From the NCBI GenBank assembly GCA_973895155.1, contig OZ316895.1, positions 20,288,803 to 20,352,802 of the forward strand: a DNA stretch of 64,000 nt, written 5' to 3'. This DNA is from Marsupella aquatica. Its lineage: Eukaryota > Plantae > Marchantiophyta. Positions 6,144 to 52,868 of the stretch are shown here, piece after piece. Position numbers and translations under genes: made by a program. The notes below the pieces were generated by a model. The model was not told where the DNA came from. It searched no databases and was given only the letters and a program-made list of their open reading frames with translations. Within the stretch, counting starts at the first letter, position 1. The number at the start of each line of letters is the position of its first letter.

Positions 6144-6237
6144 ATTCTCGTCTCATTCTCCCATGATTTGTTGTACACTCGTAGCTTCTGGTTCAGCCAA
6201 ACTCTGACGCTTTTTTTTTATGATATCAATGATGACT

Positions 6238-27900: not shown

Positions 27901-29439
27901 AATCCGCGAGTTATCTCCTAAGAGAAATTCCCCATGCTGATCCCGTGAAGTAGGGCGCGTTGCACAGATGGTCCCACCTTGCCCCAATGTGCCAAGAAAA
28001 ATTCAACCGGGACCCCGTCTGGTCCAGGACATTTGTTTTTTGCTAATGCCGCAGTTGCCTTCCCAAGCTCCTCCATCGTAAGGGGTTGGTTCAGCAAAAT
28101 CCTGTCATCCTGGGGGATGCGCTCTGATTGTTGGTCGAGTACTTGCATCACCTGTTCCCAGTGGTGTCCAGCAGATTGGCCAAGAATGCCTTGAAAGAAG
28201 AGGGTGGCAGTGTCTGCCATGGCATTCCACTCACTGACGATGCATTCCTCTAAGTTGAAGAGTTGAGTGATCTCCTTGTTTTGGGCCAGCCCCTTGAAGC
28301 TCCTGAAGAAAAGTTTAGAGCATTTATCTCCCTCCCCAATCCACCTTGATTGTAGGACATAGTCCATCCATTGGACCCGCTCAACTTCAAATTCATGAAG
28401 TAAGGTTTCTGCCTCCTTCACCGCAGCTTGTTTCCTGAAGTCCTATGGGTTGGTTTCAAGAAGCAGTTGTGCTAAAGCCAGATTACGGCGTAATGTAATT
28501 TCCCTTTGACGCCTTTCAGCAGCCTTCCTCTTGCCCCAACACCTGTCAATCTTCCTAGCTTTTTTGAGACAGCGAATGAGAGTGAGGTCCGGTGGCAATC
28601 CGCTCAAATTGCACAAAAGTTCCTCCTGTTCCCACATGGTGATGATCCGTTCCTAATAGTCCCCCTGTGGCTGGTGGCTGGTATTCATGCAGTGCTGTGA
28701 TGGCCTCTGAATGGGGACAAGAGGTACGACAGTGGCCAACACCGGTGCATGGTCTGATAAGGTAATCCCGGGCAGAATGGTCGATGTAACTGTGAAATTC
28801 CCTTGGAACGTCCCCTTGGAAGTGTAGATTCTGTCAAGCCTTCTCAAGACCCGTCTGCCAACCAACACCTCATTTGTTCTGTCAGGTACGTGTCAAAACC
28901 TCTTTTTGTTATCCCAGCTGAATCGAAGATGCCCCTGTTGCGCCTGAAAGAAGTCCACCAAATGCAGCCTCCTCTTGAGATGTTGCCAGGCTCTCTTCTC
29001 ACTGCCCGCAAGGGTAGATCCCTGCCCCCCACAGTGGTCAGAGATATTCTCGATCATATTGAAGTCGCCCAGTAGCATCCAAGAAAAGGATGGATCCAGC
29101 CGATTGAAAAGTTCCCTCCACAAGTTAGTCCTTCCACGAGCTGAATTAGGTGCATAGATTCCAAGGAAACCCACCTTGCCAAGCCCAGCGTGGACCATAC
29201 AGCACCAAGCAGCCCGCCCACAAGTTAAAACCCCCTCCGAGACCACAAATTGAAAGAGACTATTCCTAATGGCAATCGCCATTCCACCCTAGCCAGCCTC
29301 CACTCTGTTATTACGTGTGGAATGAGCTCCATCCGCTGTAGGAGCACAAACCCAGTGTGCAGTTCGCCAAGTTTCTTGAAGCTTATTGATTCTGCCAGCC
29401 CAAAGCTTGTGTTCCTGTATGCACAAAATATCAGGGGAA
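24918..29439 (-). mobile_element. 5'-truncated L1-like LINE (ORF2: endonuclease, RT, zf-RVT), pseudogenised
   Basis: Endonuclease motifs LCIQE, IYAPN, LGDFN, RLDRIY and SDH; RT motifs KCPGPDG, LKLDITKAFD, VRQGCPLSP and LFADD; C-terminal CTRC zinc motif. A T-tract (poly-A on the - strand) lies at ~24917-24925. The 15-bp TSD ACAACAAAGATTTCT is at 24903-24917 and 29440-29454. There are multiple in-frame stops. Confidence 0.93.
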
Positions 29440-32875: not shown

Positions 32876-33384
32876 TAGTAAAAGAATGACAATAGCCATC
32901 ATACAAGGCATTATACAATTGTGAGCGAGATGGGTCAATTGACTAGAGTGAAATGTATCTACAAACTGATCTCAAAGTGTTACAAAACCTGTCACATTTG
33001 TAACAAGTAAATATTATTTTTTACATTTTCTTTACGGAGATGAGTATTTTTTAAATAGATACTCACACAGTTTGAGCTTCTCCTCAATTTGAACCCACTT
33101 CTTACAATGTGCTTCACCATTTCTCTCATTAACTAGTTCTTCAAATACCCACAAAATATAAACAAAAGACAAACTAAGTTGCTATGCAATCCTCGTAAAC
33201 GTGGATCTGGTTCTACCATTCATGGAAAAATGACGCACGTGCCGAGGCTGCAATTTCATATAAAAAAGAGCAAATTCCCCTCCAGTAATCATAATGAAGG
33301 GTATTAATTGCCCAAACTTGGGCTTCCCTCTCTTGCTCTTTAGATGTTTTTTTCTCTTGCGCTTCAGCTACCTCAACTGCTTTC

Positions 33385-33655
33385 TTATCTCGCGCTTCCA
33401 ATTCTTTCTTGTGCACTTTGATTTCTTACTTGTTACTTGACTCTTGCTGTCACCAATGCCCTACTTGCTCGTTGACAACTTCGATAGTTGGTTATCCCAT
33501 ATAATCAACATTGTTTATTTGTCTTTAGAGTGTTATGGATTCTTCCAAACTATCTTGTAGAGTCAGCCTGTTGAGGAAACATGTTGCAAAACTTGAGGAA
33601 GCGTGCAAGGAAGAAATCAAAGTTCACAAGAAAGAATTGGAAGCGCAAGAGAAGA
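33385..33655. repeat. ~40-45-bp inverted repeat
   Basis: AAGAAATCAAAGTTCACAAGAAAGAATTGGAAGCGC at 33611-33646 is the reverse complement (1 mismatch) of ~33392-33427. Confidence 0.8.
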
Positions 33656-34351
33656 GGTTTTAACTTTGCAAATTTGGGATGGTGTAGCGATGCGTGTTAG
33701 TTCGCAAGTGCCGGAATTCTGTTTATCGGGCCTTTGTTGATTGCGATGTGTATGGGTTAGCAAAAGGGGCCGATAGTGTAGTAGTGTAAGTAACAAGAAG
33801 CCTTAAATGATGAGTAACAAGCCCATACTTTAGGAACTCTAGCCAAAAAATCAGAAAAACAACGAAAAAGTCAAAAAAAGTGCAAAAATTAGCACCTATT
33901 TTAGAGCAAAAATATGGAGCGAACAAAATATGACATAAACTAGCTATGTTTTGACACCTAAAAATGACCAAATTCATCTGAAGTTACATTCCACCAATAA
34001 ATGATCTCAAATACAACACTATTATCTACAATGGTCTCACAATTACACGAGGTGTCTTTTGAAACAACAACTAAATCACCTCCAAAAGCCATTGTCATTT
34101 AAAAACCAGAAAATAAATTACTACAACTTAACCTGATACACATTATTGTGAAAAGAAGACAAGGAGAATAGAAATGACACCATCTAATTGAATTGAAACA
34201 CAACCCACTAAGATAATATTAAACTACAAATTTCTCAAGAAACTTTAACCATGAATTCATGAATAAGTGGTAAAGGCATTTTGAAAATTTGTAAATTTTC
34301 AAGTTATCCATGTTTTTCAATGGTAATGTCACAAACAATAACTACTTTTCA

Positions 34352-37300
34352 TTACTCAGATCCAGAAGTCCTCAATTCTTGAAACGAAATATCCCTAGAT
34401 TTATCTCCTAGCGGGGTTCTAGTTGATCCATTCTCTTGTTCTTGCTCTTTCTCTTCTGCCAAAAATTCAGTCAATCGGATTTTGATTCGATCTACTGTCT
34501 TTTTGTACAATGTATCAGATTTTTTCAACATGAAGTTGTAAGCAAAAACAGTCGTTGAAGATAAATCAAGCTCTTGGTGAAACCATATTGGTTTCAAAGT
34601 TCCTTTCCCACGACCACTTTTCTTCTTTTCGTAGTTTAAGACTTCTGGTAAGTACTTGGCTTTCCAAGGATCTGACCCGGTTTTTGTAGCATGCCATAAA
34701 ACATAAATCATTTTTGGAATGTTGAACTCGTCGCGCTGGTCAATTCTTTCCACCTTGGCCACCCAAAATGTTTCCGATTCTTCTCCAGCAACAGAAATAT
34801 AAGTGTTGACTTCAAGATCCGAAAAGTCTCCTTCCATATTCTCCTTCTCTGCATCTATCTTTCCTTGATTCCGATAAGGACCCACGTATATATCTCTGGT
34901 AGGTCCGTATACTCTCTCTTCAATTTCCTCTTCATTGACAAGGACTCTGGGAACTTCAGCAGCAACAGCAATCTCCCTTTGGGAGCGTGGCCATTGAAAA
35001 GGGAAAATCAATGGTCTTTGATCAAGGAGCAAAGATTTATTCAATTCCCGTTGCTCTTCAAAAAACATTCTCCACCAGTTCACTTCCTCTTCTGAGAATA
35101 AAGTTTCAACTGCAAGTATTCCCTTTTGAATCTCATTTAACGAATCATCCATCTCCTTCAAAGTCATTCTTGAAGAACTAGACATATTTGGTTGAGTCCT
35201 TGTAACGTTCTTATCCCCCTTTTTGAAAAGGGGTAATCCGGGAGCACAACCCATCACCTTTTCTGGCTCCTCTTCCCTCAAAAATTTCACGCCTCCGTCA
35301 GGTTTCCAAGTTGAGTCCGTGGAAAACTTCTTCCCCCATTGGGTTGGAACTTGATTTTCCAACTTGTCAAATGCAAATTTGTACTGGTGGTGGAAGGTAA
35401 CATTTCGAATCCTTTCAATGACTAAAGGTGGATCTGAGAAGGCATATTGACGGAAATCATATGTTTCCTTTAAAAGAGTGATTGGGGTTGATATGATTCA
35501 CAAATAATATCACATAGGCTTTCGTATGTGAATGCCTTAAACCTTGCTAGTCGTTTAGAAAATCGACTGAACATTTGATCTATTTGGTCGTGTGTGTGTC
35601 CAACCAACAAGAATCCTAGTTTGATTTTCCAAAAAACCTTTCTTCGAATCAACATATGAAGATAGGCAAAGAGTAAATTATTTTTATTTTCTCTACTGGT
35701 ATTATCAAGTTGAAGATAGAGAACAGGCGGCAAGCCACCAGGCTTTTCTTCCCATTCGTGAAACACCCTTTGCAGGATTGTGACTGTGAAGTTTCCATCA
35801 TTATGCAATACAGGATAATTAAGAAACACTCTTGAAAATAGTGCACCATTGAAAACCAGGCATCCGACAACGTGCATTTGGATCAAACATGTTTCGTCCA
35901 CCGATTTTGGGGGCCGCGGCCAATGAGGCAACCTTGTCTTCTTCTGATCCATCCCGTCAATGACAACTCCCAAATATTTATCAGAATTTGAAAAAAATTT
36001 CTTACGATGCTTCGCGAGTTTCTCACGTTCTTTGGATTGTTGGTCTCTATGTTTTTGTAACATAATTTCCCCTCGCCCTGGAAAAACAACTTGTTAGTTT
36101 CTTCAAAAAAAATTAGAAATCATGTGTTAAGCCATATTCTTGAAACAAAAACTTGTCAAACTTGTAAGTAACTTACTCTTTTCGGTCTCCGAGACAGCTT
36201 TGTCCCGAATTGATTTGAACTCCTCGCAATCCGCGCAAGCACTGAATCGATTGACTGGAGGAATCTTCACATGACCAAATTCTTGAACCCAAACTTTCAA
36301 GAATTGTCGATAGGATATTTTTGAAGATTCATCAATCTTGGCATAGTTGGAGTCGTAGATCTTCCATACCTCCAGCTTTGAATAATTATCCGGTAAATGT
36401 GAAACTTCTTTATTTGGCAATGTTTCCACGCGTGTCTCAAAAAACGACCTAAGCCAACTGACCAAGACTAATCTTTTAACAGATGGAGGGCGTCCAACTG
36501 GTTTAGAATATCCTAAGTCTTGGTTGTCTAATTTCAAAATTCTATTTAATCTATGATTGCCAACGCAAAATATAAGCTTGAAAGCTTTCCGACAAATACT
36601 CTTTTGACCAAACGTGTAAGATATAGTCTGCCTCCCTCCTTCATTTCCGTCTCGCTTTATAAGCCACTGCAAAGATAAAGATCGATCCTGAGATTTCTGC
36701 CTCAAAAATTTAGAACGCGCCTCACGAATTTCTTTTGGAGATAGACTTAGGAGACAATGACTCTGACAACAGTACTTACTATTTGTTTTCTTGATATCCT
36801 CCTCTTTCAACTTTGTTTCACACAAAGTGGCGTTGCTCGTACATTTGTAACGACTAGATGCCACCGGAACATCATCATCCTCCCCACTCTCCGAAGACTC
36901 GCTTTCATTCGATGATGAAATGGTCACCAACATTTGCTTCTGAACATGCCTAGATTCCAGACCTGCAGCCTTCGGAGATGGAGGCTCTTCCTTCACTCTA
37001 TGCACCCTTGGAATACCTGGGCGTATTTCAGAAATCCCTCCATTACCGTGTAGGGACCCTTTCAATATTTTCCTAGGGTCCCTCTCCACCAGGTTGGTTT
37101 CCATGTTTGAGTTTCCGTGACTTGATCCGCTCCCTGCCCCAACACCATGACTCCTAGGTAAAACTGAGGAACGCACATTAGAATTCTTTTCTGGAATACT
37201 TTTCAATAACACTGGTCGTCTAGTTTCTTCCCTCATCCCCCTGTGAAATGTTTCCGACGTTGGCTTACCAAAGGTTTTACTTTTTGGCATTTGCTTCAGC

Positions 37301-37743
37301 CGCTGAACACTTTGGAGACTGCAAAAATCTCTGTCATTTTCCCCACTTAGTGCCTTCTTCGTCTTTCCAAATCCAGTCTTCATGAATTCATGAGACCGTT
37401 TCCCAGACATCCAAATAGGCATTGAACCTTCCAGATTACTCCCCAATTTGTCCTTTGTTGGTGACAAAAGAGATACAACTTGACGTCCAGGGGGACCAAT
37501 ACTCTCCAAGGAGTCAGAGGAGCTCCCTGACCTCTCTTTACCACCGACCAATGATTTCTTCCCACTAATTGCAAGTCGTAAAGGACTACGTTTTAACTTG
37601 CTCATAGGGGTGGGGGGTGGCATATCTAAAACAGTAGTTATTCCAGGGATATCTGGGCCAACCACTGTGCAGGGGCCATCCGGCAATGAAACATCATCAG
37701 AAACTCCATCTGAATAATCATCTGATTCGTAACACGCCGCCAT
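34352..37743 (-). CDS. Sola-related DDD transposase (RNase H fold), ~1100 aa, 2 exons, one frameshift
   Basis: Exon 37743-36177 splices in frame (GTAAGT...TTCCAG) to an exon starting at 36077. Cys-rich YCCQSHCL and FSACADC motifs. Catalytic-type motifs IDGMDQKKT.LP, LYLQLDNTSRENKN and FLLVGHTHDQIDQMFS. A 1-nt frameshift at ~35485 joins ITLLKETYDFRQY... to ORF 34352-35362. Confidence 0.8.
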
Positions 37744-38522
37744 TGGAAAAACTAGTGCAAATTGACAAGAAACTCAGAAAATCAGTAAAATCTAACAAAT
37801 CTTCTCAAAATAATGACCAAGAGTCATGAATAAACGAGCCTATTTATAGTTTTTCACGGATTGTTGGGACTTTTTAACTTCAAAAATATCAAATATTCAT
37901 GAAATTTGCAAGCTTTTTCCCGTTAATACCCCGAAATATTCATGAATAATTGGCCCAAAAACATTGATTTATCATGATTCTGGGTTAATTTTACTAAGTC
38001 GCGCCTGATCCGTGATTAGTATGTATAACCAAGGAACACGGGGCAGCCCATTCATTTTCACTCAATGTCATTTGGATTTCCTTTGTAAAAGAGTGAAAAA
38101 CAATCTCGCTGTCCAATTTCGTGCCATTTTCAGCACTCATCGGCGACGTGTCGCGAGTTGTCGCGGTCGCACTTCATTTCGACCCTGTTTTAGGTAGTAA
38201 TTTAGGCCCTGGGTGATTTCTTCACGTCACCCCCCTCCGAACCCTATTTTAAATACCCTTCTGCATCACCGAGGTGTACAAGCAAAGAGAGAGGAGACTC
38301 CCTTCATGAATTCATGAAGGTCGGAGCGAGAGGGAGACTCCCTTCATGAATTCATGATAGGAGTCCTGGGGTGGCCGAGAGCGTTGTTAGATCCGTAAGG
38401 ACACGGTTTTAGTAGCCATTTGTTGGCACATTCCTTGGTTCTGTGGCACTTTGTCTTGTAGGTTGGGGTTGAAGTGGACTGATTTTGTGGTATGTTCTCA
38501 GGTTTGAAGATCAGGCAAAAAC
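37744..38522. promoter_or_regulatory. Putative bidirectional promoter between transposase and ParB-MTase, with TCATGA palindromes
   Basis: CTATAAATAGG on the - strand at ~37839-37849 and TTTAAATA at ~38248. Perfect 20-bp palindrome CCTTCATGAATTCATGAAGG at 38301-38320, with a second copy 40 bp downstream. Confidence 0.55.
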
Positions 38523-41500
38523 ATGACAATGTCGCAGGAAGAGCTAGTGGATGACATCTTTTCGCGCCATCCTTTGACGGACTTCCACAACTCATCCTGG
38601 ACGATTTCCTTAGGGACGGAAACATGGAAGAAGCCCTTCCTAATGCTGTGTGTATTTGAGGGGCTTCCATCGGGGGCATTAGGGTGGGTAAATTACGGCC
38701 GCATCGATGTATTTCGACGGGGCGACGAAGTTGTGAACATGTTGATCACAACGAAGGAAACATCAACTTTGATTGTCGTGGATGTGGAGAGGTTTTCTGG
38801 AACGGCTGCCACCTGCTATCTCGATGAGGACATCGATAGCATCATTGAGACTGTCAAGTCTCTTTCGAGTGAGGAACGTTACCACGACGTCGCGGGAAAG
38901 ATTTCCGGTTTTGTGTTTGAATTTCACGCTAGCACTTTAAAGAGTGCAATCCGAAAATCAAGAGAGATTCTCCGGAAAAGGTCGGCAGAGAAGGGAGTAA
39001 GTCGTCCACCCAAATCTGGGGCTTCCGGTGTTCCTTCTGGATCGAGGCCTAGCATTTTACCCAATGATATTTTGACCGTGGTAGCGCCTACAACCTCCCG
39101 GGAAGCAGCAGCATCTGGAGGGGGATCTCAAGTTGGCAGATCATCCCAGGGAACGGCTTTGACTGGTGGGTCGGCACAAGGTACGACTGGAACTCGCATT
39201 TCTTCAAAGAAGCGACCTGCTATGACTCTTGAGCCTACCGAGCCCAGTGCTACAAAGTCAAAAAAGAAGACTTTGGAGAAAATTCCAACGCATTTGGAGC
39301 AAAAGGCTCAATCAATGTCAATGGATGCACGGGTGTTGTACCAGGAGGAGATTCTGGGAAGATGTGGTGTTCAAGAGGAGACCGTGACCGTTGACATTGG
39401 TCAACTTTACCCTCCAGTGAGAGAGAAGGCTGTGGGCTTGCCCATTTACCAGGTCCGACACATCCAACCATATTTCTTGACCCAATTGACCTTGCGGATG
39501 AAGACTGTAGGTGCCAGTCCACTTGCAGCTCCGTTTGTCCTCTTGGTGGATCCGAAGGAGTGTGCTACTAGGCAAGACTTTGATTTTTCAAGGAAAGCTG
39601 ATTACCATTATTATGTGATTGGGGGCAACCATTCAGCCCGTGCCAAAGCAGACCTTGCTCTTCAGTTCCCTAACAACAAGGCATTTCGGAGAGTGCAATC
39701 TTGGATATTTGCGGGATTGAGTGTGCAAGAGGCAAGAAACCTTGCGTGGAATCACAATATTGATTCTGAATTTCGACAACAGATGACGACAATCCAGAGA
39801 GTAAATTATATTCACATGAGATTTGTTGAGAATGGATTGTCGTCCAACCAGGATTTCAAGAAAGAGTGTGCTACTGAAATCAATCTCAAGGATTGGGGTG
39901 TACGAAAGGATGCTGAGGTTCTTAATGCCAATGATAACCTATTTCAGTTGGCATTCCGACAAGATCCTGTGTGGTCATTTGTGAGGCAGATTTGTGACAA
40001 GTGGGAGATGTGTGAGATCAAAGGTCAAAAAGGAGACAAAGGCAAGAAGAAAGTCTCTAAGTCTGGAGATGCCAAATTGCCTTATGAGGACATGAAATTA
40101 ACAGAGTGGAGACACATGCAGGCCTTGAAAGATCCTGATATGATTTGCCCAGTGTTACAGAGAGTTCTTACTAAAGAACTCTCTTTACAGGAAATGGGTC
40201 ACGAATTTACTCGACACAAATTTCAGATGCAGGTGCAGAAGGCCTTCCTCACGTGTCTACACGAGGAGAGTTGGTCAGGTTGTAAAACCAAGTACCCTGA
40301 GCATTGCACAGACAATGTGCTTAAGAATTTCGTACCTATTTTCCAGACATGGGTAAGATTCTGTCACCTTTCTTCGAATGATTGTTTGAATTCATTTAAT
40401 ATTTGGAATCCTTGTTTCTAATTCTACAGTTCCTTTTTGTAGAAAGATACCACCTCCCGGAAAAAGAAGGGAGATGAGGAAGGCAAAGATCTCAAGTCAT
40501 TCCCGGACAAATTCAATGCGCATATTGTGCAAGCCCAAAATTGGCTATCCATGAAGACTTCTAGTCGGCAAACCCAAGAGGGGGAACTTCATCCAAATTC
40601 GTTTGAGCATCCAGAGTTTGGTGATGTGCACTATGATATTTTTACTCATGATGCTCAGCGATTACATGAGGTGGTTCCGGGTCGGGCTTACACATTAGCT
40701 TTAGTGGATATTCCCTACGGGTTTGCATTGCCTGGATGTCTTCATGAAGACACTATTGGATGGGGAACTGAGGAGATCACAAAAATGGTCCAATCGTTCA
40801 AGGTGGCTACTACTGCAAAGTTGTGGCGTATTATCATTCACCACAGCCTTGACCAATATGAGGCCATCAAGACCGTTTTGAAAGCGGAGTGTAATGGAGG
40901 GTTCCAGAATTGTGTGTGGTAAGAAATATTTGTTTTTGAAAAAAACAACTATTAGTTATTCATGATTTCATGAACCATGTTTCTCAGTTTAAATAACTCC
41001 TTGACTTTTTGTGACTTTTCAGGGTTAAGGATAATGTGAAGAATGCTGGTGGACCAAGATTGAACAGCAACTTTGAGTGCTTTACAATTGGCTTTCACAG
41101 CCAGGATGGTAAACGGTCATTGGAGCACTTCAATTTTGACACAAATGAATCAAGGAACAATGTGGTTGTATGCGCAGCTGTGACTAAGAAGCTGAAACAC
41201 AACGGGGATAACAAGGCAATGAATGTTTATCAGAAACCACGTGCATTGTTAGATTGGGAAGTGAGTCATTTTAGTCAGGTTGGAGACTGGGTTTTGGATA
41301 TTTGTTCAGGATCAGGGATTGGGACAACCTCCTCCTTGGCCATGGGGAGACATTGCGTTGCCATTGAGATTGACGAGCGACAGAGCAGTGTGTTGGAAAG
41401 GGAGGATTCTTAACCTTGCAGATAACATTGAAGAGGAAGACGGACAGGGGGAGATGGATGAGGAGAGTGAGGAAGACATTCCTCAGGCCGGAGAGGATAG

Positions 41501-41585
41501 CGTGGTTGACGATGCCACAATTGTTCCAGAATTGACGACAGGGACTTCCGGAACCGAGGAAGGGGAAGCGGTCCCTTTGGATTAG
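38523..41585 (+). CDS. ParB/Sulfiredoxin-like domain fused to a beta-class N6-adenine/N4-cytosine DNA methyltransferase; 3 exons; 1-nt frameshift near the C-terminus
   Basis: Exons 38523-40352, 40443-40918 and 41023-onward splice in frame at GT-AG sites. ParB-like PFVLLVD...YYVIGGNHSARAK. MTase motif IV ALVDIPYG precedes CVWVK, then QKPRALL, motif I VGDWVLDICSGSG and GRHCVAIEIDERQ. An apparent extra G at ~41396 shifts the acidic tail (...GRILNLADNIEEEDG to 41585) out of frame. Confidence 0.85.
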
Positions 41586-41939
41586 ACTAGATAAATAGAG
41601 GGACTCGTAGCATTTGAAACCACTTGGGCTTAAGTTGGGTTATATTTTGTAAAACTTTGAGTTTGACTTAAACTCTGATCGATGAGTTTGATTTTGATTA
41701 CTTTTATAAAGTGCATATTTCAAGGTTTATACAATTGTGAGAATATCATATAAGATATGCTTAGATTTTGGTGGTAAAATTCTCTTGAGTCTAGTTTGGA
41801 AAATACATACAATTTTTTGGTGGTTTTTTGGTATACACTTTTTAATATCATGAAGATTTTGAAAAGAGAAATAAGGCTTTGGACTCATCCCTTAAGGCTT
41901 CTTGTTAAGTGTGCTAGTATTGTAGTTACGTGAATGGAG

Positions 41940-42200
41940 CAACTGTAGGCAGTACACTATAGCATGCACATTGTAGATCGTACACTATAGCATACACATT
42001 ATAGATCGTACACTGTAGCATGCATGCTATAGATTATACACTGTAGCATGCACACTGTAGGTCTTGCATTGTAGCATGCACTCTGTAGACCGTACACTAT
42101 AGCATGCACACTGTAGATTATACACTGTAGCATGCACACTATAGGTGATGCACTGTAGCATGCACACTATAGACTATATATTGTAGCATGCACGCTATAC
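41940..42200. repeat. Minisatellite, ~28-bp unit (14-bp sub-period), about 8-9 copies
   Basis: CACTGTAGCATGCACACTGTAGATCGTA-like units. Confidence 0.9.
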
Positions 42201-42289
42201 ACATGCATATAATGCGAGAATTCAAAGTACTATCCACACACAGTACGAACGGTGCATTGAAGTTCGTGGGGTTTTTCATGAGAAGTATC

Positions 42290-43692
42290 TTAGTTGATAT
42301 TCTCCACATGTAATCTATCCACTGGTCTAATCAAAGTTGACATATCCCCCTCCTCATCAAATATCAGATTTTTGACATGCAGAAGGATAGTTGTCCTTTG
42401 CACCCTTTGTTGCATCAACAGACTGAGCTCTGCTTTGATGGCGTTAGTCTCATACATTGAAAGAGCCGTCTCCTCCTCTTGATCAGCCTACAAAAAACGT
42501 TGCAAATTCAGTTCAGGAAAAAAAAAACAAGATTTTTATCGGAATCCGCATTTGTCTACAAAAAATGTTGCGAATTCAATTAAGGAAAGAAACAACAAGA
42601 TTTTTATCGAAATCCGCATTTGTTCAACAAAACTAAACGACATAATACTTACCAATGGCATCGTAGGAACCGCGATGAGAACTAAAGGAATTGATGTATT
42701 AGTCGGAGCTCTAATTACTTCTGGAGCCACCGTTTCACTCCAGCCAGTTCTCTTTCTCTTTGTGCTAAGTCCAAAACCAGATGGCCCGGATCCCTCAGAT
42801 CCTTTACTTTTGCTTGGATTAACGGATGGCGCTTCTGATGCACGTCCTCAACAATTGCCTCGGCCCCTTCCACTACCGCCAGTTTCCTGGCTCCTCTTCC
42901 CACCGTCAGAAATTCCCGTGGCATCTCCCCTGCTGCTACCTCTCCCTTTCCCTCTTCCACTTCCTGAAACCCAACCAGAACTTGCGGGTTTGTCCACATC
43001 AATATGTGGAGAGGTGTGTAATGATTCTTTACGGCCCGACCTTTTATCGGCATAAGAACCACCACTCCCGCTTGAACCAGGTTTCTTGAAAACAATTTTT
43101 TGGACAGGTTTGAACTCTTCACCCACAAGTCTCTTGTTCTCTTGTACTCTGAGTTCACCCTTGGTAGCATGATAGCATCACAATCTTGGACATACTCGCA
43201 CACCCAAGCCAACCCCATAACATTCATCTCTCTTGCTGCTCAAACTTTGATGACAAGGAGATCTTCTGGATAATTGTCAATAGATTTCTTATCAAAGTTG
43301 TTGAGAGTAACAATGACAGATGTGAAACCCTTGCGTCCACACATTGTCAAGAAACTAAGGCCCTCTGTCAAAACTTTTCCCTCCCCGTGGCCAACCATGA
43401 ACTCATAGACGGCCACAACAATCACAGGGTCATACGAAACATTAACCTTTGCAGATTTTTGCAACTGGACCCAAAGGATTGCAGTATCACAATCTTGGAA
43501 ACCCGTGGACTGTAATCTGGCGTCACGAAAGTACCATGGCTTCTTGATACACTTGACCTCTTCACAAATGTCTTCACTCGTCCAAATTGCATTGGTGAGG
43601 CTTGTCATGAGACTTTCAGCCTCAACAGATCCACTCTTTCCACTAGCAGCGCTGCCATGGCAGAGTTTGCAAATAAACATATTCCAATTCAA
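42290..43692 (-). pseudogene. Decayed cargo gene of unknown function (globular N-terminus, Gly/Ser/Arg-rich linker)
   Basis: ORF 43240-43692 continues in frame past a single TGA into 43227-. It then shifts to the frame of 42848-43126 and 42536-42730. A donor-like GTAAG lies at ~42652, and a last exon ~42488-42290 reads ADQEEETALSMYE... Confidence 0.5.
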
Positions 43693-43975
43693 AGAGCGAT
43701 AAAATTATCATTGCCAATCTCATAGCACATGTGGAAATGTAGCACGACATCTCATAACACATAAGGACAAGAGACTCGCAATGCAGACGACGATAATTTT
43801 ATCGCTCAACTCAAGATGGGGTCATTCAAGTTTCAGTATAATCATGAAAAACACATTTCCAAGGAAGTTTCAGTATAATTATACCAACACCGATAAAATT
43901 ATTGCAAAAGTAGTCTGAACAAAAAGTGAGCCTTTTTTAAATTGACGACCGAGTACACATGTGATATGTGCCTAA

Positions 43976-44870
43976 TCAATCATCCCTTCCAAGATCAAAC
44001 CGCGCTACAGCGTAGCAAGAGATTAGCTTTTTGGGCCATCGGGGAATATGAGTGACGCTATGGTCGTACGCCCACAACCAATGGAAATCAACATCACCAG
44101 TCTCAGGGTTCACTATTGCTACTGAATACCGGCGTGACAAAATGTCACAACAAGCATTGTGCAGCATTGACACATCTCACCATTGGCAAGGATGCTCGTC
44201 CACAGGCAACATACATAGACTAACTTAAACAACTCACATAAAGGTTGGGGGGAGTTGACGAGTCCTGTATGAATATAGTTTCCCACCAGTGTCAATCAAA
44301 AACTTGGTGGCAAGAGGATTAATGTCCAGTTGGTCAATCACATCCTAAATCTCATCAAATGCTCTACGTCTGTTGTGGGCATAGAATTCTGGTTCATATG
44401 CAGGATTGCCCTTCACAACATGATAACAGTGCAGTATAAAACATTTTATTGCACCGGTTTTCAGAAAGAGCAGGATAACTCTTCTAGAAAATGAAACATA
44501 TCTATCCCACCGGATATAAATTTCTCCCTCTACCTGGTCTACGTAGAAGTGAAATGCGTTATTATAAAATGATTTTGCGACTAGCCTGCAAATCTTTAAA
44601 ATTAGTGATTCATCCAGCCTCCTTAGCTGGTCCATCATGGCGCCATTTCCCCATTCCGGAGGATCCACGAAGGGTACAAAAATGTGCCGCTTGAGCATGG
44701 CCTGATCAGCAAACGGAAATCATGAATAAATTTTGGAGAACATTAACTCATTCCAATTCTACAAGTTTATTCCAACTAAGTTAAAGTACCTTGTATAACG
44801 GGCTGTGAAGCCAATGCACTTGTCAGCTAATCGTCCATAGATGCGCAAAAAACTACACTCTGGACCACAC
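43976..44870 (-). CDS. Fragmented cargo ORF(s) of unknown function
   Basis: ORFs 44345-44698 and 43976-44173 have globular-protein composition, with an AG acceptor just upstream of 44698. Confidence 0.35.
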
Positions 44871-45036
44871 AACCCGAAGTTAGGCAAAGCAATTCAGTGT
44901 CATTTATATTCAAAGTGTTTCTTTACAAGCTCTTCTCAAGCAAACCACCCACTGAAAAGAATTGACTACTAAATTGACCAGAAGGAATGAGGAGTGCGAT
45001 AAATTTATCGGATGTTTGCAGCAATGCCTCATCCAC

Positions 45037-45584
45037 TCAGACTCGTCCACGCCATGCAAGAATTGTCCGCTTCCTGCTTTCTCCAAGATTCACCCAAACT
45101 CTAAGAAACGCATCTAATCGGTCATACGAAAAGCACCCAAGCATATCTATGGGAGGGAGGAAATGAGTTTCCTCTCGAAAGACCCTAGCAATATGTAGGT
45201 TTGGGAGAAGGTCGGCATTAGGAATGCTTGCGAGCATTTTGTTTATGTCATTAATCTCACGAACTGCGTATTTCAGTAAAACCCAAAATCCTGTACCAAC
45301 AACAAGATGGTTCCATTTCTTTGAGGTGGCTCCAAGACAAATAATTATTCTCATTTGAGCCAGTCATTTTTGGGTAAAAGTTTTAGGTCATGGCCAAGGT
45401 GTTCATCGTGTGTGCAAGACAATGCTAAGAGAGGCCAAATATGAGATTCAACGAGCTGATCAGGAAGTCTATTCAACAAACTTCCGCATTCCACACCGGC
45501 CACTTTTCCTTGAATATATTTCCTATGCTCATGGGCTAATAAGGATGCCATCTTAGCAATGATTAGGTTCTCCGATGCAGCCAT
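45037..45584 (-). pseudogene. F-box-like protein split across two overlapping ORFs
   Basis: LLNRLPDQLVESHIWPLL in 45351-45584 and ICLGATSKKWNHLV in 45037-45354 resemble the two halves of an F-box; the ORFs overlap by ATGA. Confidence 0.45.
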
Positions 45585-46694
45585 TAAGCAGAGCTACCAA
45601 AACCACCAATAAAAGTACCTTCAATCACGGGTTCAATCACCAGGTGTAACCAAAGATATCCACAGTACCAACCCTACATGACAGTTTAACAATTAGGACT
45701 CGGAGCGTATTATATTCGCTACACTTGGGTAAAACTGTTTTATATTAAATGTGTCCTTACAAAATGCGCCTCATGTGGTGCGTCCCATGGCTCCCTAAAC
45801 CCAAGAAACCCCCCAGCTCAAGCCGATTCCCGCAGGTTTTGTGCTTGGCGAGGCCGTTTCCGCGGCTTAGCGGCATGGGACGCTGCTAACCTTCTACTAC
45901 TACTATTAACATTTTACACACATATACTGGACAGATCCTTCATCGGGTCATGAGATACGTAGCCGGCCTAATATAGGCCTTCCCCTATCTTCCCCTGTCT
46001 TCCCCTCCGTCTTGTTAGGTATGTTTGGATTCCGCCGCCGGAATGATCCCCAATAGGCTTGGTTAAGCCGCTAAGACCTCTCTCAGCTCGACACATCCAA
46101 CTCTCACTCCCCTGCTTACTTTCCTTCCTTCTGTTGATGTGGGCACTCTTCACACAAGTTAATGCGACACACAAATAGCAAAATGACTCATTCTGACTGA
46201 ATCATACCATGCACTTGCCATACAAACAGTACATCTCATACACAAGTTCTGCGAACTAAGCCGTGAGGCCAACTCTATTCAGCTCTTAGGCATGAGGAAA
46301 CATGAATATACACAAGGGTCACTGTATGACTAACCGAGAGCTTCTCGTACTACTTGATCCCAGCCCGGCTGGTGCAAACTAAAAACTTGCTAAAGAAGAG
46401 GCCCTGAGCTCCCCGCTGCCCAGGTACTTATCCTGGTAGTGGATCCGCCATTCTTTGCATCGTAAGCCTAATCTACCTGACAGTAATCTACTTGCCCGAA
46501 TCTACCTATGTACAGCAAGGCAGGAGCACAAGTGTTGCTCCTACCAGTGGGACCGCAATCCCACTAAGCTAAGTGTCAGGGCCGCTCCTGGTTCTGATCC
46601 TAATCCTAAACGTGGAGATCCGCGCCCGCCCTGCCCACTCACGCCTCCTCCCTCCACGTCCGCCCTCCCTAAAAGGAACGGCACCCTTGCACCG

Positions 46695-49600
46695 TCACGA
46701 CACCGGTGGTGGATCCTCAATGGACGCCCCCAACACTTCCTCCTCAGCCACTGCCGTTGGCCCGCCTACTGACAGATTACCTGCCCTTGACCGAGTCAAC
46801 TCTCCATCGGCCTGACTGGGTCCACCTTCGGCTTTAGCCTCGACACCGGCCTCGGCAATACCCACGGCTTCGGCAATACCCACGGCTTCGGCCTCAGCCA
46901 CTCCCACGGCTTCGGCTTCAGCCACTCCCTCGGCTTCGGCCTCCCCTTCCCCTAGGGTAGTTGGATCCTTAGCCGTGACCCTGTCTGGGGTCGGTGCTGG
47001 GTCTACCTCCTTGATCACCACGGCCTGTGAAGTCGTATTACTCCTTGACCCTGAAGGTTTCCGCTTCTTCTTCGTTGGTGGCTCGGCAGCTGGTCCCTTC
47101 CCCTTCCCACTTACTTCCGGCACTGGTGCAGTTGGCGCGGCTTGTCCTTCGGCAATTACCACCCCTGGTAACTGGTTTGTCCCAACGGGAGATGGACCTG
47201 CTGCAGCTAAGCATTTAAATACTGCGGCTTGTTTCTTCAGCCGCTCTGTTTGGTTGTCGGCCCGCCGCTGTAGGTTCTCCATCTTCCTCGTGATTTCCTC
47301 CAACTCCTCTTGGGTTTCATCCAGGTCCTTACGTGCCCCCTCCAGCTCATTTTTGGCCTCCTCTTGCTCCCTGTGGGCTTCCTCCAATTCCTTCTTCAAG
47401 GTAGCCCTCTCCTCCTGGGTTGCTCTTAGCTCCTTGTTGAGCTCTGCAATGATGACAGACTCCATCTGGTTCATCTTGGCGTAAGTCTGTTCGAGCATCT
47501 CGTCCTTCTCCCTTAGGTCGGCCTTGAAGCTGGCCGTCAGGGACGCAAGCTCCTGCTGCAGCGCCATAATCCCTTGATAGGATTTCCCTAACTCGACCTC
47601 CTTCTGCTCAAGGGCTCCGCGGATTTTCTCGAGCTCCCCTTTCAACGCCCATTCCTTTCTTTGGGTCTCCGCCATGGCCCGGCTGTTGGCTGTTATGTGG
47701 GCCTCCTCTGTATTCTTCAGCTCTTGCTTCCACTTCTCCCTCTCTTTGATCGTGTCGGCCAACTCTTCCTGCGTCTGAGTCAGTTTATCCTTGATATTCT
47801 GATTATCAGCCTGCGCGGTGTCCAACTGCCCCTGCATGATGTTCAGCTCATGTCGTTTAATCCGCAGTTCATCTTGGGCTTTCTTGGCCGCCCTTAGATC
47901 TTCAATCTCGGCTTCCATCCTCCTAAGCCGCCGAATGACCTCGTCCTTCTTGCTTCTCTCTAAAGCCACCGCTTCTTCTAATTGGTGCTTCTCCAACTGC
48001 TCCCTATGGAAAAAGGGTCCTACCTCCAACTCCTCTCCAAAGATGCCGAGTGCAAGTTCCCCACACATCTCACCATACTCCATGGCTCTATTCTTAGCGT
48101 AGGTGGAGTAAGTAGAAGTGATCGGCATCGCCCATCGTGGCCTCTGCTCCCAAGCCGTCCTGCGGATCTCTTCAATCGTGGCTAGAGGTTTGCTTCCTTT
48201 TTCGGCCAGCCGCCTGATGTCCTCCGGCCAATCTCCTCCTGGTAAATCCTTTTCCTTAGCCAGGGCGGCCTCTTCCTCCTGCTTGATTCGCTCCTGAAAT
48301 TCCTGCACCGTCTGTTTTATGCCGTCGAAGCTCGGGGGAGCAACATCTGGTGGGGGAGACTCAGGGCTACTCTGCTGGTTGGGGTCCCCTCGCACTACCC
48401 TTGGAAGTGTGGGGACAAACCGGCCACAGGTCCTTACTCCTGGAACGTGATGGTCCGACCCATAGCCGGAATTATCATGGCTGCAGTCCTCCACTGCCTC
48501 CTCTACCTCTTGGACGTCCGGCTTCTCCCTCTCCTCTTCGTCAGTAGGAGCTTCAGGCAATTCTGCCTCAGATTCGGAGCTTGAGGTTCCCACGTACATT
48601 CGAACACCTGGCTTGGATTTCGGCCTGATTCTCTCCTTGTCTCCAGCAAAGGGGTTTTCTCTTGTGAGCCGGTGTAGGCCTACCTCTATAGTAGTGTCCT
48701 GCATTGTTGCCGTTGCCGTTGTTGTTGCCGATGCCGATTTCTTTTCTTTCTCTAGTAGTTTCAGCAGACTCTGCATGCCTGGTTGCTGCATCGGCAAGTC
48801 TTCCTTCCTGGGCCTAAACACCTGCTCGATCGTAGGACTAACAGGTGGTTGAGGCTTCTCAGCCAACGGCCTTGGCGTTGGAGCTTCCTCGGGTGCCCTT
48901 ACCTGCAGGGGAAGTACCGGGGCAAAAGTCTGACCTCTGGCATACCGGCACAACAGCGGCATGTGATAGCCAAGCCGCGACACGCTCCCCATGCCGATTA
49001 CCTGCTCCTCCTCCTTTAAGATCTTCTTCAATTGGTTGAGGAGGTACCCGTTGTAGTCCCGGCTTGGGTCTGGCCTTTCTGCCAGATAGACCTGTGCCTT
49101 GCCGATCTCTGCCCTCGGCAAGTTACAATGCATGGTCACCCGCAAGAAGTCGATCATCTCTCCTATGTGCGGGTTGGTGCAGGTGTTCCGGAAGAAGCCA
49201 TTCTTCGTTGATGGCCCGGGGAACGACCGGAACTCCTTGTCAGGCAAGGTCTTCCTGGTATCAACTTTGGTCTTATTGCCTATCGGCAGGCCAAACACTT
49301 CGGCAATTACCTTGGGAGTAAGATAGAAATCCTTCCCATATATCCTCGTGCAATTGGTCTCGGGTTCCCATGACCCCACGAATTCTAATAGGTCTGACTC
49401 CGGTACCTCCGGCTTCAGCCATGGTAATCTTACAAAGGCCTCCAAGCCGGATCCGGCCATGAAGCCTTGGTACTTCTTGGTCTGCATGGCTGTAAAGCAT
49501 GCATCCTCCTCCCGTGCAAAATGTAGTTGCACCTCCACCGGTAGGGTTGCCGCCCAGCCCTTCCAGGTGTCATCCCTGGTTGGAATGGCCTTGATGGGAT

Positions 49601-50375
49601 CGACCTCCTCCTCTTCGGCTTCTCCCTGCCTCCTGCTCTGCTGCTCGGCTGGCCTCTTTGGTGCCGCCGACCTCGTTCTTTTTGACGGGGTGGCTTCATC
49701 GTTGACGGCCCCCTTCCTCTTCATCTCTGCTGCCGTGGAGGTTTCTCCTAGCACCGTTGCCTGGGTCCACCTTTCCGTGCTACCCTTTAATTCCCAGTGT
49801 ATGTCGTTGCAGTTCTTGATGGCCTCTCGGATGCCAACGACGCTGTCTTTGCAAAACAGAAGATCGTCGAGTTGATTGGAAGTAGGCGTCCACAGGAACT
49901 CGTCCTTGATGAGTTCGCCTCCTAAGAAAGCCGTCTTCTGCAACTCCCACAATCGAGCGAGCTCCTGCCGTTCTCGAGCTGCCCTTTCTGACTCCTCGTC
50001 CTCGTAAGTCTTGATGTACTCAGTTGCCCGTTCGAACAGGCATCCCCAGAAATGTGCCACTTGATTGACGTTGCTCATACCCTCCTTAGGTCGATCGTCG
50101 GTATCTACTCTCTCCCCGAGTGCTTGCCTAAGCAGCTGACAGTAGTTGGCCTCCCGTAGTCGTCTACCTAGTTCGTGCTCGCAAATGAGCCACCATCTCC
50201 TGCAAGCGCTCCTTACCCCTCTCCTCTGCCGGTCCTTCTTCCCGTTGATCCTTCCTAGCCGCCGACGCTTAACGCACCCTAACCCTAATCGGGTTTTCAC
50301 CCTTAGCCTTACCTCCGGCCTCGGCCCGGGTTCCATGGTTGCCCCTAATTGTTCATATTTTCCTTGTTTTGTCAC
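46695..50375 (-). CDS. Intact, intronless 1226-aa TE-associated protein (plant-mobile/'putative plant transposon protein'-like domain + long coiled coil + AEAVG(V/I) repeats)
   Basis: Uninterrupted ORF. GLEAFVRLPW...LLEFVGSW...IYGKDFYLTPKVIAEVFGLP resembles the extra ORFs of plant Gypsy elements. Heptad-rich region ~aa 790-1060. A degenerate paralogue is at 10.5-11.9 kb. Confidence 0.7.
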   Translation of the reverse strand: MTKQGKYEQLGATMEPGPRPEVRLRVKTRLGLGCVKRRRLGRINGKKDRQRRGVRSACRRWWLICEHELGRRLREANYCQLLRQALGERVDTDDRPKEGMSNVNQVAHFWGCLFERATEYIKTYEDEESERAARERQELARLWELQKTAFLGGELIKDEFLWTPTSNQLDDLLFCKDSVVGIREAIKNCNDIHWELKGSTERWTQATVLGETSTAAEMKRKGAVNDEATPSKRTRSAAPKRPAEQQSRRQGEAEEEEVDPIKAIPTRDDTWKGWAATLPVEVQLHFAREEDACFTAMQTKKYQGFMAGSGLEAFVRLPWLKPEVPESDLLEFVGSWEPETNCTRIYGKDFYLTPKVIAEVFGLPIGNKTKVDTRKTLPDKEFRSFPGPSTKNGFFRNTCTNPHIGEMIDFLRVTMHCNLPRAEIGKAQVYLAERPDPSRDYNGYLLNQLKKILKEEEQVIGMGSVSRLGYHMPLLCRYARGQTFAPVLPLQVRAPEEAPTPRPLAEKPQPPVSPTIEQVFRPRKEDLPMQQPGMQSLLKLLEKEKKSASATTTATATMQDTTIEVGLHRLTRENPFAGDKERIRPKSKPGVRMYVGTSSSESEAELPEAPTDEEEREKPDVQEVEEAVEDCSHDNSGYGSDHHVPGVRTCGRFVPTLPRVVRGDPNQQSSPESPPPDVAPPSFDGIKQTVQEFQERIKQEEEAALAKEKDLPGGDWPEDIRRLAEKGSKPLATIEEIRRTAWEQRPRWAMPITSTYSTYAKNRAMEYGEMCGELALGIFGEELEVGPFFHREQLEKHQLEEAVALERSKKDEVIRRLRRMEAEIEDLRAAKKAQDELRIKRHELNIMQGQLDTAQADNQNIKDKLTQTQEELADTIKEREKWKQELKNTEEAHITANSRAMAETQRKEWALKGELEKIRGALEQKEVELGKSYQGIMALQQELASLTASFKADLREKDEMLEQTYAKMNQMESVIIAELNKELRATQEERATLKKELEEAHREQEEAKNELEGARKDLDETQEELEEITRKMENLQRRADNQTERLKKQAAVFKCLAAAGPSPVGTNQLPGVVIAEGQAAPTAPVPEVSGKGKGPAAEPPTKKKRKPSGSRSNTTSQAVVIKEVDPAPTPDRVTAKDPTTLGEGEAEAEGVAEAEAVGVAEAEAVGIAEAVGIAEAGVEAKAEGGPSQADGELTRSRAGNLSVGGPTAVAEEEVLGASIEDPPPVS

Positions 50376-50474
50376 TATACTAAGGTGTTCCTAGGGTGCC
50401 TTCCTGCTTTACCCACTTAACCGGCCGAGTGATTCCTGTCTAGGCATCACACCTCAATGTGAAGGTTGCAACAC

Positions 50475-50804: not shown

Positions 50805-51014
50805 TTGTCAATATACCTATGATCCACCGAGTGCAATCGACCTTCCGTTGTGCCTCCTAAACCCGGCAGCACTGCGACATCACAAAGGAAGATGAGTCTC
50901 CAAACAAAACAGAGGAAAATGAGTCTCACAAGAGGGTGCAATAAGTTTATCACACTTCGCATTCACCTTGAAGACATGACTCCCTCACACACCTAAGCCC
51001 TGAATCCATTAAAG

Positions 51015-51400
51015 GAATGGATACTCTGATAAATTTATCGGAGTCTCAAACAATCTTCAATCAATCACAAGAATGGAAACTCCAATAAATTTATCGGAGT
51101 CTCAAACAATCTTCAATTAATCACAGGAATGGAAACTCCGATAAATTTATCGGAGTCTCAATTAATCCTTTATCCATCAAAGGAATGAAGACTCCGATAA
51201 ATCTATTGGACCTTGAATATAGTCTATGGAATGAATGCGCACTCCTCTTATTTTACTGGATCAAAGGAATGCAACATAGGAATGTAGAATGCGATAAATT
51301 TATCGCAATCTGCTCGGATCAGGACATTGACACCAAATGACAAGTCAACCTTACATAGATGATACTCAAAATAGAATGGTAGTTTTGATAAATTTATCGG
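51015..51400. repeat. Array of palindromic CCGATAAATTTATCGG sites, 4 copies at 56-bp period plus 2 outliers
   Basis: ACTC(C/T)(G/A)ATAAAT(T/C)TAT(C/T)GGA at 51023, 51079, 51135 and 51191; TGCGATAAATTTATCGCA at 51290-51307; GATAAATTTATCGG at 51387. Confidence 0.9.
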
Positions 51401-52274
51401 GTTCTCTGGAGAAAGAGTCAAGTCTCTTGGGAGGAATGTAAGACTCAATAGGAGTTCAGTATTCGCTCTGAGTGAGGTGTTGTTCGCTCCGGAAAAAATA
51501 AACTTTTTATGGGCAGCCCGCTCCTCTTTATATATGGGATGCTCTAACCATGCATGGTTACTTTCCCCCTTAACCCGAGCCTTAACCCGGGTTAGTGCAT
51601 GATCGACCCTCGATTACGTGGTTCAGACCAAGTTACTCGCAGTTTGGACTTTTTCACAGACCAAATGTAAAACCCGATGCACGTATTGCTCCCTGCATTC
51701 CCGCAGCGATGCAATGTAGGAAACTAGTGTTTCTTCAAGTTTTCAGCAGTTTTATCGGAGATTGCATTGCCTTAGAAAAAATGGAATTGGGCTAAACAAG
51801 AAGTGTGTCCCACTTCTCGGTCGGTCCAAAATCATGTTAAGTGTATTGCTCAGTCTACTACAGAAGTGGATTATGTTGCAGCAGCGGAAGCAGCAAAGGA
51901 AAAAAATTGGTTGGATAGACTTATCATTGAGATGAGATTGCCAGAGGGGAATGTGAAGCTCCATTGTGATAGTCCGAGTGCACTCCACCTTGCTATGAAC
52001 CAGGTGATAGACAACAGAGTGAAGCACATTGATGTAAAGTACCATTTTATCAGGCAGGCTGTGTCTGATAATATGTTTGAGCTAGTCAAGATTTACAGTA
52101 AATTCAACCCGACTTTTACGTCGCTTTTACTAAAGTGATTCCTTTGGAGAGTTTTTCTAGACACCGTGATGCGTTGTAGGTTTTGCAATTGCCTCATAAG
52201 TAGGGTTACTTAACATTTGTGTAGATACTGAGATATGCTCTTGCTCATTTCTTGTATAGGCTACGGCTTAGTTC

Positions 52275-52677: not shown

Positions 52678-52868
52678 ATCTTCCCCTTGACTCTGGTCTA
52701 GGGGAGAGTAATACTGCCAATGTATATGATCCCTCAGCGGGAAGTTCTGGACAGAAACCAAACCGGTTTCCCTCTCTAACTAGAGCAAACCAGAACTAAG
52801 CCGTAGCCTAATACATAGGAATGAGGAAGAGCATATATCAGTAATTACAATGAATGTTTAAGAAAACT

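Follow-up and report, generated by a model that had tools for sequence, protein, structure and literature searches.

What does a gene that joins a ParB-like region to a bacterial-type DNA methyltransferase do in the genome of a liverwort? The question is raised by a 64,000-nucleotide stretch of Marsupella aquatica DNA (contig OZ316895.1 of assembly GCA_973895155.1, forward-strand positions 20,288,803 to 20,352,802), called here the window, in which such a gene occupies the plus strand from 38523 to 41585 (Table 1). It stands head-to-head with a transposase-like gene of the DUF7869 family inside an 8.1-kb repeated unit with inverted ends, and palindromes in and around both genes recur in three diverged families. 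The explanation that we place first, and hold tentatively, is that of a self-marking transposon: a ParB-like dimer encoded by the element would load on the element's own palindromes, write N6-methyladenine (6mA) and so keep the element active against silencing.

The gene is interrupted twice. Both introns have a GTAAG donor and a YAG acceptor, and exon GC contents are 0.45-0.47 compared to 0.30 and 0.26 in the introns. The length of intron 1 is a multiple of three, yet it holds an in-frame stop, such that the unspliced open reading frame (ORF) ends at 40421. In the spliced frame, motifs appear in the order GGNHS (residue 367), DIPY (699), W-x-K (769), QKP (839), LDICSGSG (860) and EID (884), with the W-x-K codons joined across the second splice. 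Protein P0008 of Calypogeia fissa (NCBI), which is 61-69% identical per exon, crosses both joints in register. In metagenome loci L001 and L002, whose exon 1 is 56% and 47% identical, GT-AG introns interrupt the same two codon positions, and the alignments of seven further homologues called as plain ORFs end at the first donor. Judged by these shared joints, both predicted introns are real. A preliminary description of the locus had likewise proposed that two GT-AG introns restore a single frame and that the second splice rebuilds W-x-K, and it had carried the gene to 41585. The last point does not hold for this copy. One extra base at 41395 shifts the frame, and translation of the window copy already stops at residue 899 (41411-41413), downstream of motifs I and II. 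The extra base is absent from contigs that account for 624 of 646, 1761 of 1776, 2800 of 2900 and 12 of 26 depth units in four DNA sequencing runs.

By motif order, Pfam profile and modelled Rossmann fold, the C-terminal half is a beta-class N6A/N4C methyltransferase. Motif IV lies ahead of motif I, which is the beta order, and the Pfam N6_N4_Mtase profile (PF01555) matches exon 3 with 32.9 bits relative to a curated cut-off of 26.7 (E 8e-8). The best fold match in the PDB to a model of P0008 (predicted local distance difference test score, pLDDT, 77) is CcrM (E 8e-14), which is also the best match by sequence and by profile. RsrI, BceJIV, M1.HpyAVI and MboIIA rank above PvuII and N4CMT in the same fold comparison. 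Among 63 homologues that align across motif IV, drawn from 158 proteins, D is the first residue in 58 and S in one; D-x-P-Y is found in 41, DPPY in three and SPPY in none. The window copy has DIPY, not the S-P-P-Y of the N4CMT and MpDN4MT1 type. Most of 43 full methylase cores retain motifs IV, I and QKP, and uncorrected proportions of changed sites are 0.10-0.29 for nonsynonymous and 0.68-0.84 for synonymous positions in all six exon pairs compared. To judge from these values, the gene is under purifying selection with clear coding constraint. The predicted enzyme is likely to be active on DNA and, if active, probably writes 6mA rather than N4-methylcytosine (4mC).

The other half of the protein was compared to known structures using an AlphaFold model of exon 1, built with eight sequences and reaching a mean pLDDT of 61. 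A Foldseek search with this model returned only five matches at E<=0.001, all of them Noc or ParB, with sulfiredoxin next. When the proteins on Foldseek's own match list were compared again, residues 282-412 matched the N-terminal domain of Caulobacter ParB (Z 7.8, root-mean-square deviation (rmsd) 3.0, 95 residues aligned). The match to Noc also takes in the DNA-binding helices, as far as about residue 570 (Z 8.3, rmsd 10.6, 196 aligned), residues 422-568 match Spo0J (Z 4.3), and KorB is also present (Z 6.0). The modelled fold in the middle of the protein is that of a ParB-like N-domain. Residues 270-610 are predicted to form a homodimer that pairs through this domain, with an ipSAE of 0.58 compared to 0.00 for the best control, at least 79% of contacts common to the runs and pLDDT values of at least 77. 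The mark used here was reached by 21 of 30 solved homodimers and none of 23 monomers, and by 17 of 29 and none of 30 for eukaryotic proteins, but the result may reflect memory of ParB dimers whose structures are already solved.

These results bear out part of the preliminary description, which had assigned the enzyme to the beta-class amino-methyltransferases, taken D-x-P-Y as favouring 6mA and proposed structural comparison as a check; both the CcrM match and the Noc and ParB matches, the latter from a model of moderate confidence, came out as it foresaw. Its likening of one stretch to the ParB/sulfiredoxin motif survives at the level of the modelled fold. The arginine of 'GGNHSARA' on which the likeness partly drew is private to the window copy, where 39639 is changed from C to T relative to all contig depth listed; C is present in all seven close homologues.

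Domain content varies across the family. Eight database proteins carry a ParB region and N6_N4_Mtase in one chain. The nearest Atlas clusters to the ParB half are fungal DUF3723 clusters (score 0.95-0.96, Pfam share 22-99%), and neither a ParB nor a DUF3723 profile appears among the Pfam families listed for 27 family members (25 of 36). The small N-domain (residues 20-141) is present in only seven of 158 proteins; a PH-like fold was considered for it and rejected, with a Z of 4.6 at best that lies within noise. P0013 (1825 residues) has two ParB-methylase units in tandem. P0113 has a Cys-rich, finger-like tail C-terminal to the methylase domain, which may be a chromatin reader.

Several observations indicate that the gene travels with a mobile element. 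The inverted ends that enclose both genes are 33 nt long and 85% alike, and their first 16 nt match exactly; three of 200 random anchors in the window, which is rich in repeats, gave an inverted match as long as this. Summed contig depth, which is not copy number, rises about 20-fold or more at the left end in three of four runs: from 27-28 in the left flank to 484-1099 inside the unit in run X1, from 56-57 to 1839-4348 in X2 and from 74-93 to 1862-11578 in X3, with X5 patchy. The same depth plateau spans both genes, as does a single low level of divergence. Inside the unit, the window differs by 0-0.5% from the commonest X1 contigs; to the right of 41907, it differs by 7-10% from the commonest contigs. 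Because the window is so close to these contigs, and the frameshifts of both genes are absent from them, intact young copies likely exist. Terminal inverted repeats (TIRs) flank the repeated unit as in a cut-and-paste transposon, the right one being less sure, and candidate target duplications, from one copy only, are TA on both sides or GTAA/TTAA. The right end probably lies at 41905-41907. Extending the element to 45.7 kb is unlikely and was set aside: depth there is equal in X1 and about half in X2, under different likeness limits, and divergence jumps. The unit is likely a cut-and-paste DNA transposon in which the methyltransferase is the second gene, and this gene is very probably its cargo. 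Rfam has no match between 33 and 46 kb of the window.

The transposase-like gene is transcribed away from the methyltransferase gene on the opposite strand, with 780 nt between them. Its second exon matches the DUF7869 profile (PF25273, E 2e-44; Atlas 0.95), and its frame is broken near 35481 in the window copy, which is 7 nt short at this point. Three spaced acidic motifs suggest a DDD transposase. DUF7869 has no structure match in the PDB and is not named in the literature searched. The element may resemble the Sola superfamily. The available portions of PMC5751038 and PMC5753468 gave no feature by which this likeness could be judged. The first 21 residues of the predicted protein are identical at 15 positions to those of an ORF that is placed and oriented alike in L001 (E 0.14).

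The palindromes provide the candidate binding sites. TCATGA is the most enriched palindromic hexamer both in the unit and in L001. Exact TCATG-N4-CATGA occurs four times in the unit and never in the remaining 55.9 kb of the window, and it occurs four times in L001 and three times in L002; 300 dinucleotide shuffles of each gave means of 0.027, 0.017 and 0.003 for the unit, L001 and L002, and never more than one. All three loci have an upstream pair, with a spacing of 40 nt in the window and in L001 and 42 nt in L002, plus one site in intron 2. L001 also has two in the ORF that matches the transposase-like gene. Within intron 2, 11 of the 14 site columns are invariant across the three loci, compared to 21 of the 60 remaining intron columns. 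The central four bases are CTAG in all three L002 sites, which span 2.9 kb, and AATT, ATAT or ATTT elsewhere. Such a concerted and symmetric change suggests a reader that evolves with the element, and would fit a site read by a dimer that the element itself encodes. The DNA-binding helices differ among the window, L001 and L002, with no difference attributable to the change of site. Both upstream sites of L002 belong to longer perfect palindromes of 32 nt, whose outer arms differ, and hairpin or cruciform structure may matter too. By analogy, we lean slightly towards a dimer that reads these 14-20-bp palindromes as ParB reads parS. CATG alone is not enriched in the unit (4.6 versus 4.9 per kb), so a plain CATG target would leave no trace.

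A search of viral contigs for relatives of the palindrome pair gave three loci (L011, L012 and L013), apparently from one phage, which were rejected since none has a family match at E<0.05. In L012, the TCATG-N4-CATGA pair (4918-4971, and 5321) lies between divergent gene blocks, and these sites are likely repressor operators.

The self-marking transposon could operate in four steps. A ParB-like dimer would load at the family-specific palindromes of its element, and the attached enzyme would methylate adenines over the element. The dimer might spread across the 8-kb unit from the pair at the promoter and from the site in intron 2. The resulting mark might then favour transcription of the transposase and methylase genes or block silencing by 5-methylcytosine (5mC). 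The last two steps, spreading and its effect on expression, are perhaps a shade more tentative than the scheme as a whole.

A number of observations weigh against this scheme. The exon 1 model has a pLDDT of only 61, and Z scores near 8 are close to the noise line of the tool. The ParB half has no match among sequence profiles of Pfam, PHROGs, NCBIfam or the PDB, the PDB profile search with exon 1 giving zero matches. The ParB box that binds cytidine triphosphate (CTP) has the arginine-containing form GxxR. In the homologue census, the corresponding family motif is GG(N/G/T)H(S/T/C), with no arginine at the fifth position, and CTP-gated sliding is doubtful because these arginines are missing. 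The margin in favour of 6mA is thin, with N4C enzymes falling within one order of the RsrI score, and automatic annotation names the top viral fold matches as N4C. Beyond the window, the link to the transposase rests on the 21-residue match to L001. Depth remains high to 45.6 kb in X1 and at about half in X2, such that the right end is not proven, and the unit ends show no clean target duplication. The CpG ratio is 0.63 inside the unit and 0.52-0.68 outside, which leaves no footprint of escape from 5mC. The palindrome was noticed after these sequences had been viewed and is kept in two of ten related loci. The other eight are more distant, and seven of them are short (1.1-2.3 kb), while the 9.5-kb L003 has neither the palindrome nor a detected transposase. 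Finally, a neighbouring repeat in the window has palindromes of its own and no methylase homologue, so sites of this kind may serve transposases.

Two other explanations share most of the evidence and are, in our judgement, each unlikely. In the first, the ParB half is a KorB-like regulator of the divergent promoter on the same transposon, which binds the palindromes to adjust the expression of its own gene and of the transposase gene, and methylation is minor or limited to the sites and their immediate neighbourhood. The palindrome pair does sit between the two gene starts, KorB is among the fold matches, the arginines for CTP are missing, and motif IV departs from D-x-P-Y in 22 of the 63 homologues. 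A regulator confined to the promoter accounts less well for the sites in intron 2 and in or after the transposase-like gene, and for the retention of motifs IV, I and QKP in most cores under purifying selection. In the second explanation, which we rate no higher, it is the transposase or a host factor that binds the palindromes; the methylase would act in trans, either on a short motif throughout the genome or on transposition intermediates or target DNA. Seven copies of a different palindrome in the neighbouring repeat, with no methylase homologue nearby, could be understood in this way, as could the eight of ten related loci that lack an exact site. Transposases usually bind at inverted ends, however, and the sites here are far from them. 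One is conserved in an intron of the methylase gene itself, and the protein already includes a predicted dimeric ParB-like module for DNA binding.

It is less probable again, and quite unlikely, that the enzyme writes 4mC and in this way shields cytosines of the element from C5 methylation. According to the available part of PMC8885841, this domain has switched between 6mA and 4mC repeatedly; PvuII and N4CMT match the P0008 model at E 5-6e-10, and the viral fold matches are named N4C. In the accessible text of 10.1101/2021.02.12.428880, 4,5-dimethylcytosine was not detected in Marchantia sperm. The absence of SPPY from all 63 homologues, the predominance of D as first residue and the consistent ranking of CcrM at the top argue for adenine instead. 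A host gene or functionless passenger that lies beside the transposase by chance is very improbable: the unproven right boundary and target duplication and the lack of a transposase in the 9.5 kb of L003 would allow it, but the two genes, enclosed by the inverted ends, are alike in depth and in their low divergence, L001 repeats their head-to-head layout, and clear coding constraint is accompanied by at least 11 diverged paralogues in Chara.

The self-marking transposon has partial counterparts among known systems. CcrM, M.RsrI and M.MboIIA, which are N6_N4_Mtase enzymes, have the same IV-to-I order, W-x-K, QKP and fold. Unlike them, the present family has mostly replaced the first proline of motif IV, carries a ParB-like and helical fusion, is spliced and is only about 22% identical. 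ParB and Noc, the CTPase clamps that act with parS and NBS, resemble it in the predicted N-domain and helices, the predicted N-domain dimer and the presence of palindromes nearby. It differs in having GGNHS where those proteins have an arginine-rich box, in a methylase that replaces the C-terminal dimer domain, in lacking ParA and in its eukaryotic setting. Fusions of ParB to N6-methylases in phages and prophages, described for ParB-terminase loci in the available part of PMC4738411, also place a ParB-like domain before an amino-methylase. Compared to those fusions, the ParB half here has no phage or PHROGs match, there is an extra N-domain and a longer helical part, and the context is a eukaryotic transposon-like unit. 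The eukaryotic Group 1 clades of the same source (MT-A70, the PPR-fused S-motif clades, and those of Naegleria, basal fungi and a haptophyte) are, from the descriptions available, misfits by motif, permutation or range.

Among eukaryotic enzymes of bacterial type, bdelloid N4CMT (PMC8885841) and Marchantia MpDN4MT1 (10.1101/2021.02.12.428880) are also beta-class, and introns are shown for N4CMT. In the accessible portions of these sources, both are host genes that write 4mC, with a chromodomain in N4CMT and TSPPY in MpDN4MT1; the bdelloid enzyme is stated there to have no eukaryotic homologues. The Marsupella gene instead has a D-first motif and a ParB-like half and is repeated together with a transposase-like gene.

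TET/JBP enzymes travel on KDZ elements. An inactive adenine methylase of DIRS1 and a Trichomonas Dam near A32-ATPase transposons are further DNA-modification enzymes on eukaryotic mobile elements, as far as the available part of PMC4738411 describes them. All of these involve another methylase class and another element; here, catalytic motifs are kept, and the accessible descriptions do not mention a ParB-like half or palindromes. Another parallel, by analogy only, is VANDAL/VANC. According to the part of PMC5735166 available, VANC21, the product of an accessory transposon gene, binds its own transposon at motifs that lie in introns and between genes and vary from family to family. 5mC is lost through the action of VANC, whose motifs run in tandem and in one direction, in contrast to the palindromes and predicted writer of another mark found here. 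The Atlas neighbour of the ParB half, DUF3723, likewise rides mobile elements, being a conserved cargo gene of fungal Starships in the accessible text of 10.1101/2021.12.13.472469, and is a lead that does not appear among the Pfam matches shown.

No transposon-borne fusion of ParB to a beta-methylase is described for streptophytes in the literature searched, a scope that left out subscription journals, Repbase and preprint supplements. The same absence was noted in the available portions of PMC4738411, PMC8885841, 10.1101/2021.02.12.428880, PMC12344493, 10.1101/2024.10.28.620566, PMC11258239, PMC5751038, PMC5753468 and PMC5735166. Genes that modify DNA or oppose silencing are already known from transposons; this architecture, with its cognate palindromes, appears to be new.

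How old is the family, and where did it come from? A search with P0008 gave 410 representatives at E<=0.001, with 114 at 1e-10 among the best 150 listed. Chara braunii, in which there are at least 11 diverged paralogues, supplies 11 of the 15 matches of a wide alignment, and some of its proteins are automatically labelled as N-4 or N-6 methylases. In a tree of the 43 out of 170 proteins with a near-full methylase core, a Chara-containing group (100/99) and a group with Calypogeia (96/90) are accompanied by deep further branches. The tree includes no prokaryote and has several long branches, so it does not identify a donor. On sequence evidence, the family is old, has expanded in Chara and is present in the liverwort Calypogeia. 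The member in L003 (2700-5390) is distant (37%): it has two or more additional introns, reads DIPR at motif IV and has a long interspersed nuclear element (LINE) fragment on its 5' side; it is a decaying copy in another plant lineage.

The preliminary description had seen a phage-type fusion acquired horizontally. Prokaryotic ancestry is a fair inference from the modelled fold, but capture of a single phage-type gene sits poorly with a repeated unit and an old family. Distant members are 22-28% identical to phage and plasmid methylases among the 30 matches listed per search, and align with them only over the methyltransferase part, so any transfer would be ancient. Among 50,697 phage records, there is no match to P0008 (E<=0.01) or to the ParB half (E<=1). 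Pattern scans of viral contigs and GTDB genomes, which reach close relatives only, found none.

Whether land-plant DNA contains 6mA, and which enzyme would write it, is disputed, and surveys centre on MT-A70 enzymes. The present results add a wide beta-class family from Chara and a liverwort that transposons appear to carry and that has a named candidate site, and they lead to the prediction that native long reads will show modified bases across these elements. If the self-marking scheme is correct, a writer-type strategy against silencing would exist beside that of VANC, and a system similar to ParB/parS would operate in a eukaryotic nucleus. The available part of PMC4738411 (Iyer et al.) reports few N6A methylases in land plants. 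Pairs of palindrome and protein that are specific to families could become tools for site-directed, spreading methylation. A broader and more doubtful proposal is that a eukaryotic DNA transposon lineage older than land plants runs 6mA self-marking in the style of parS/ParB, with the mark telling self from host, and that the same module may serve Starships as DUF3723. In that case, transposons would supply 6mA to plants without the AMT1 pathway.

Table 1. Positions in the window of the two genes, candidate ends and palindromes of the repeated unit
Feature	Position	Strand	Remarks
Left inverted end (candidate TIR)	33791..33823	+	First TA may be target duplication
Palindrome site, one mismatch	34249..34262		Downstream of transposase-like gene
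Transposase-like gene, exon 2	34352..36077	-	DUF7869 at ~35482-35904 with DGMDQ, QLDN, GHTHDQID
Transposase-like gene, intron	36078..36176	-	99-nt GT-AG; splice leaves open frame; predicted
Transposase-like gene, exon 1	36177..37743	-	548-residue open frame; low-complexity N-half, Cys motifs
Palindrome TCATG-AATT-CATGA	37380..37393		Within transposase-like exon 1
Palindrome pair, 40 nt apart	38301..38357		Cores 38304-38317 and 38344-38357; divergent intergenic region
Methyltransferase gene, exon 1	38523..40352	+	N-domain, disordered linker, ParB-like N-domain, DNA-binding helices (predicted)
Small N-domain	38580-38945	+	Within exon 1
ParB-like N-domain (predicted)	39366-39758	+	Within exon 1; GGNHS 39621-39635
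ParB/Noc-like DNA-binding helices (predicted)	~39786-40232	+	Within exon 1
Methyltransferase gene, intron 1	40353..40442	+	GT-AG, 90 nt, GC 0.30
Methyltransferase gene, exon 2	40443..40918	+	Catalytic motif IV DIPY at 40707-40718
Methyltransferase gene, intron 2	40919..41022	+	GT-AG, 104 nt, GC 0.26
Palindrome in intron 2	40960-40973		Inside methyltransferase gene
Methyltransferase gene, exon 3	41023..41585	+	QKP 41231-41239, motif I 41294-41317, motif II 41366-41374, acidic tail
Right inverted end (candidate TIR)	41875..41907	-	Less sure; another repeat follows directly

The DNA on either side of the unit is rich in other repeats. An older, broken repeat occupies 41908-45750 and recurs at about 50900-51650, with pieces of minus-strand ORFs that have no Pfam match, one of which may resemble Plavaka/CMC transposases. 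It has 14/28-nt tandem repeats at 41915-42227 and seven copies of its own palindrome, GATAA-N2-TTATC, at 43698, 43792, 44998, 51028, 51140, 51293 and 51387. This repeat is a second element with private palindromes. Farther right on the minus strand, an open frame of 1231 residues (46695-50390) encodes a coiled coil with no Pfam match above cut-off; summed contig depth exceeds 50,000 over this DNA, rising near 45700, which points to a very abundant element, and the window contains another, diverged copy at around 10.8-12.0 kb.

In the low-depth left flank, a 50-nt inverted repeat (33383-33655, 92%, arms 173 nt apart) could form a hairpin RNA or represent a miniature inverted-repeat transposable element, and has no Rfam match. 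On the plus strand at 60413-60916, a helical frame of 167 residues reads like a spectrin-type repeat from a host gene exon, with no Pfam match above cut-off. Retroelements account for further parts of the window, all on the minus strand: a degenerate element with features of a long terminal repeat (LTR) type at 5160-9407, which has 215-nt direct repeats that are 92% alike and gag- and protease-like frames without Pfam support, and a stop-broken LINE-type element with endonuclease and reverse transcriptase at 24900-29300. A Copia-type LTR retrotransposon at 52275-58630 has gag and pol frames and terminal repeats that are identical over at least 300 nt, and an inverted LTR-like stretch at about 58970-59740 is related to it.

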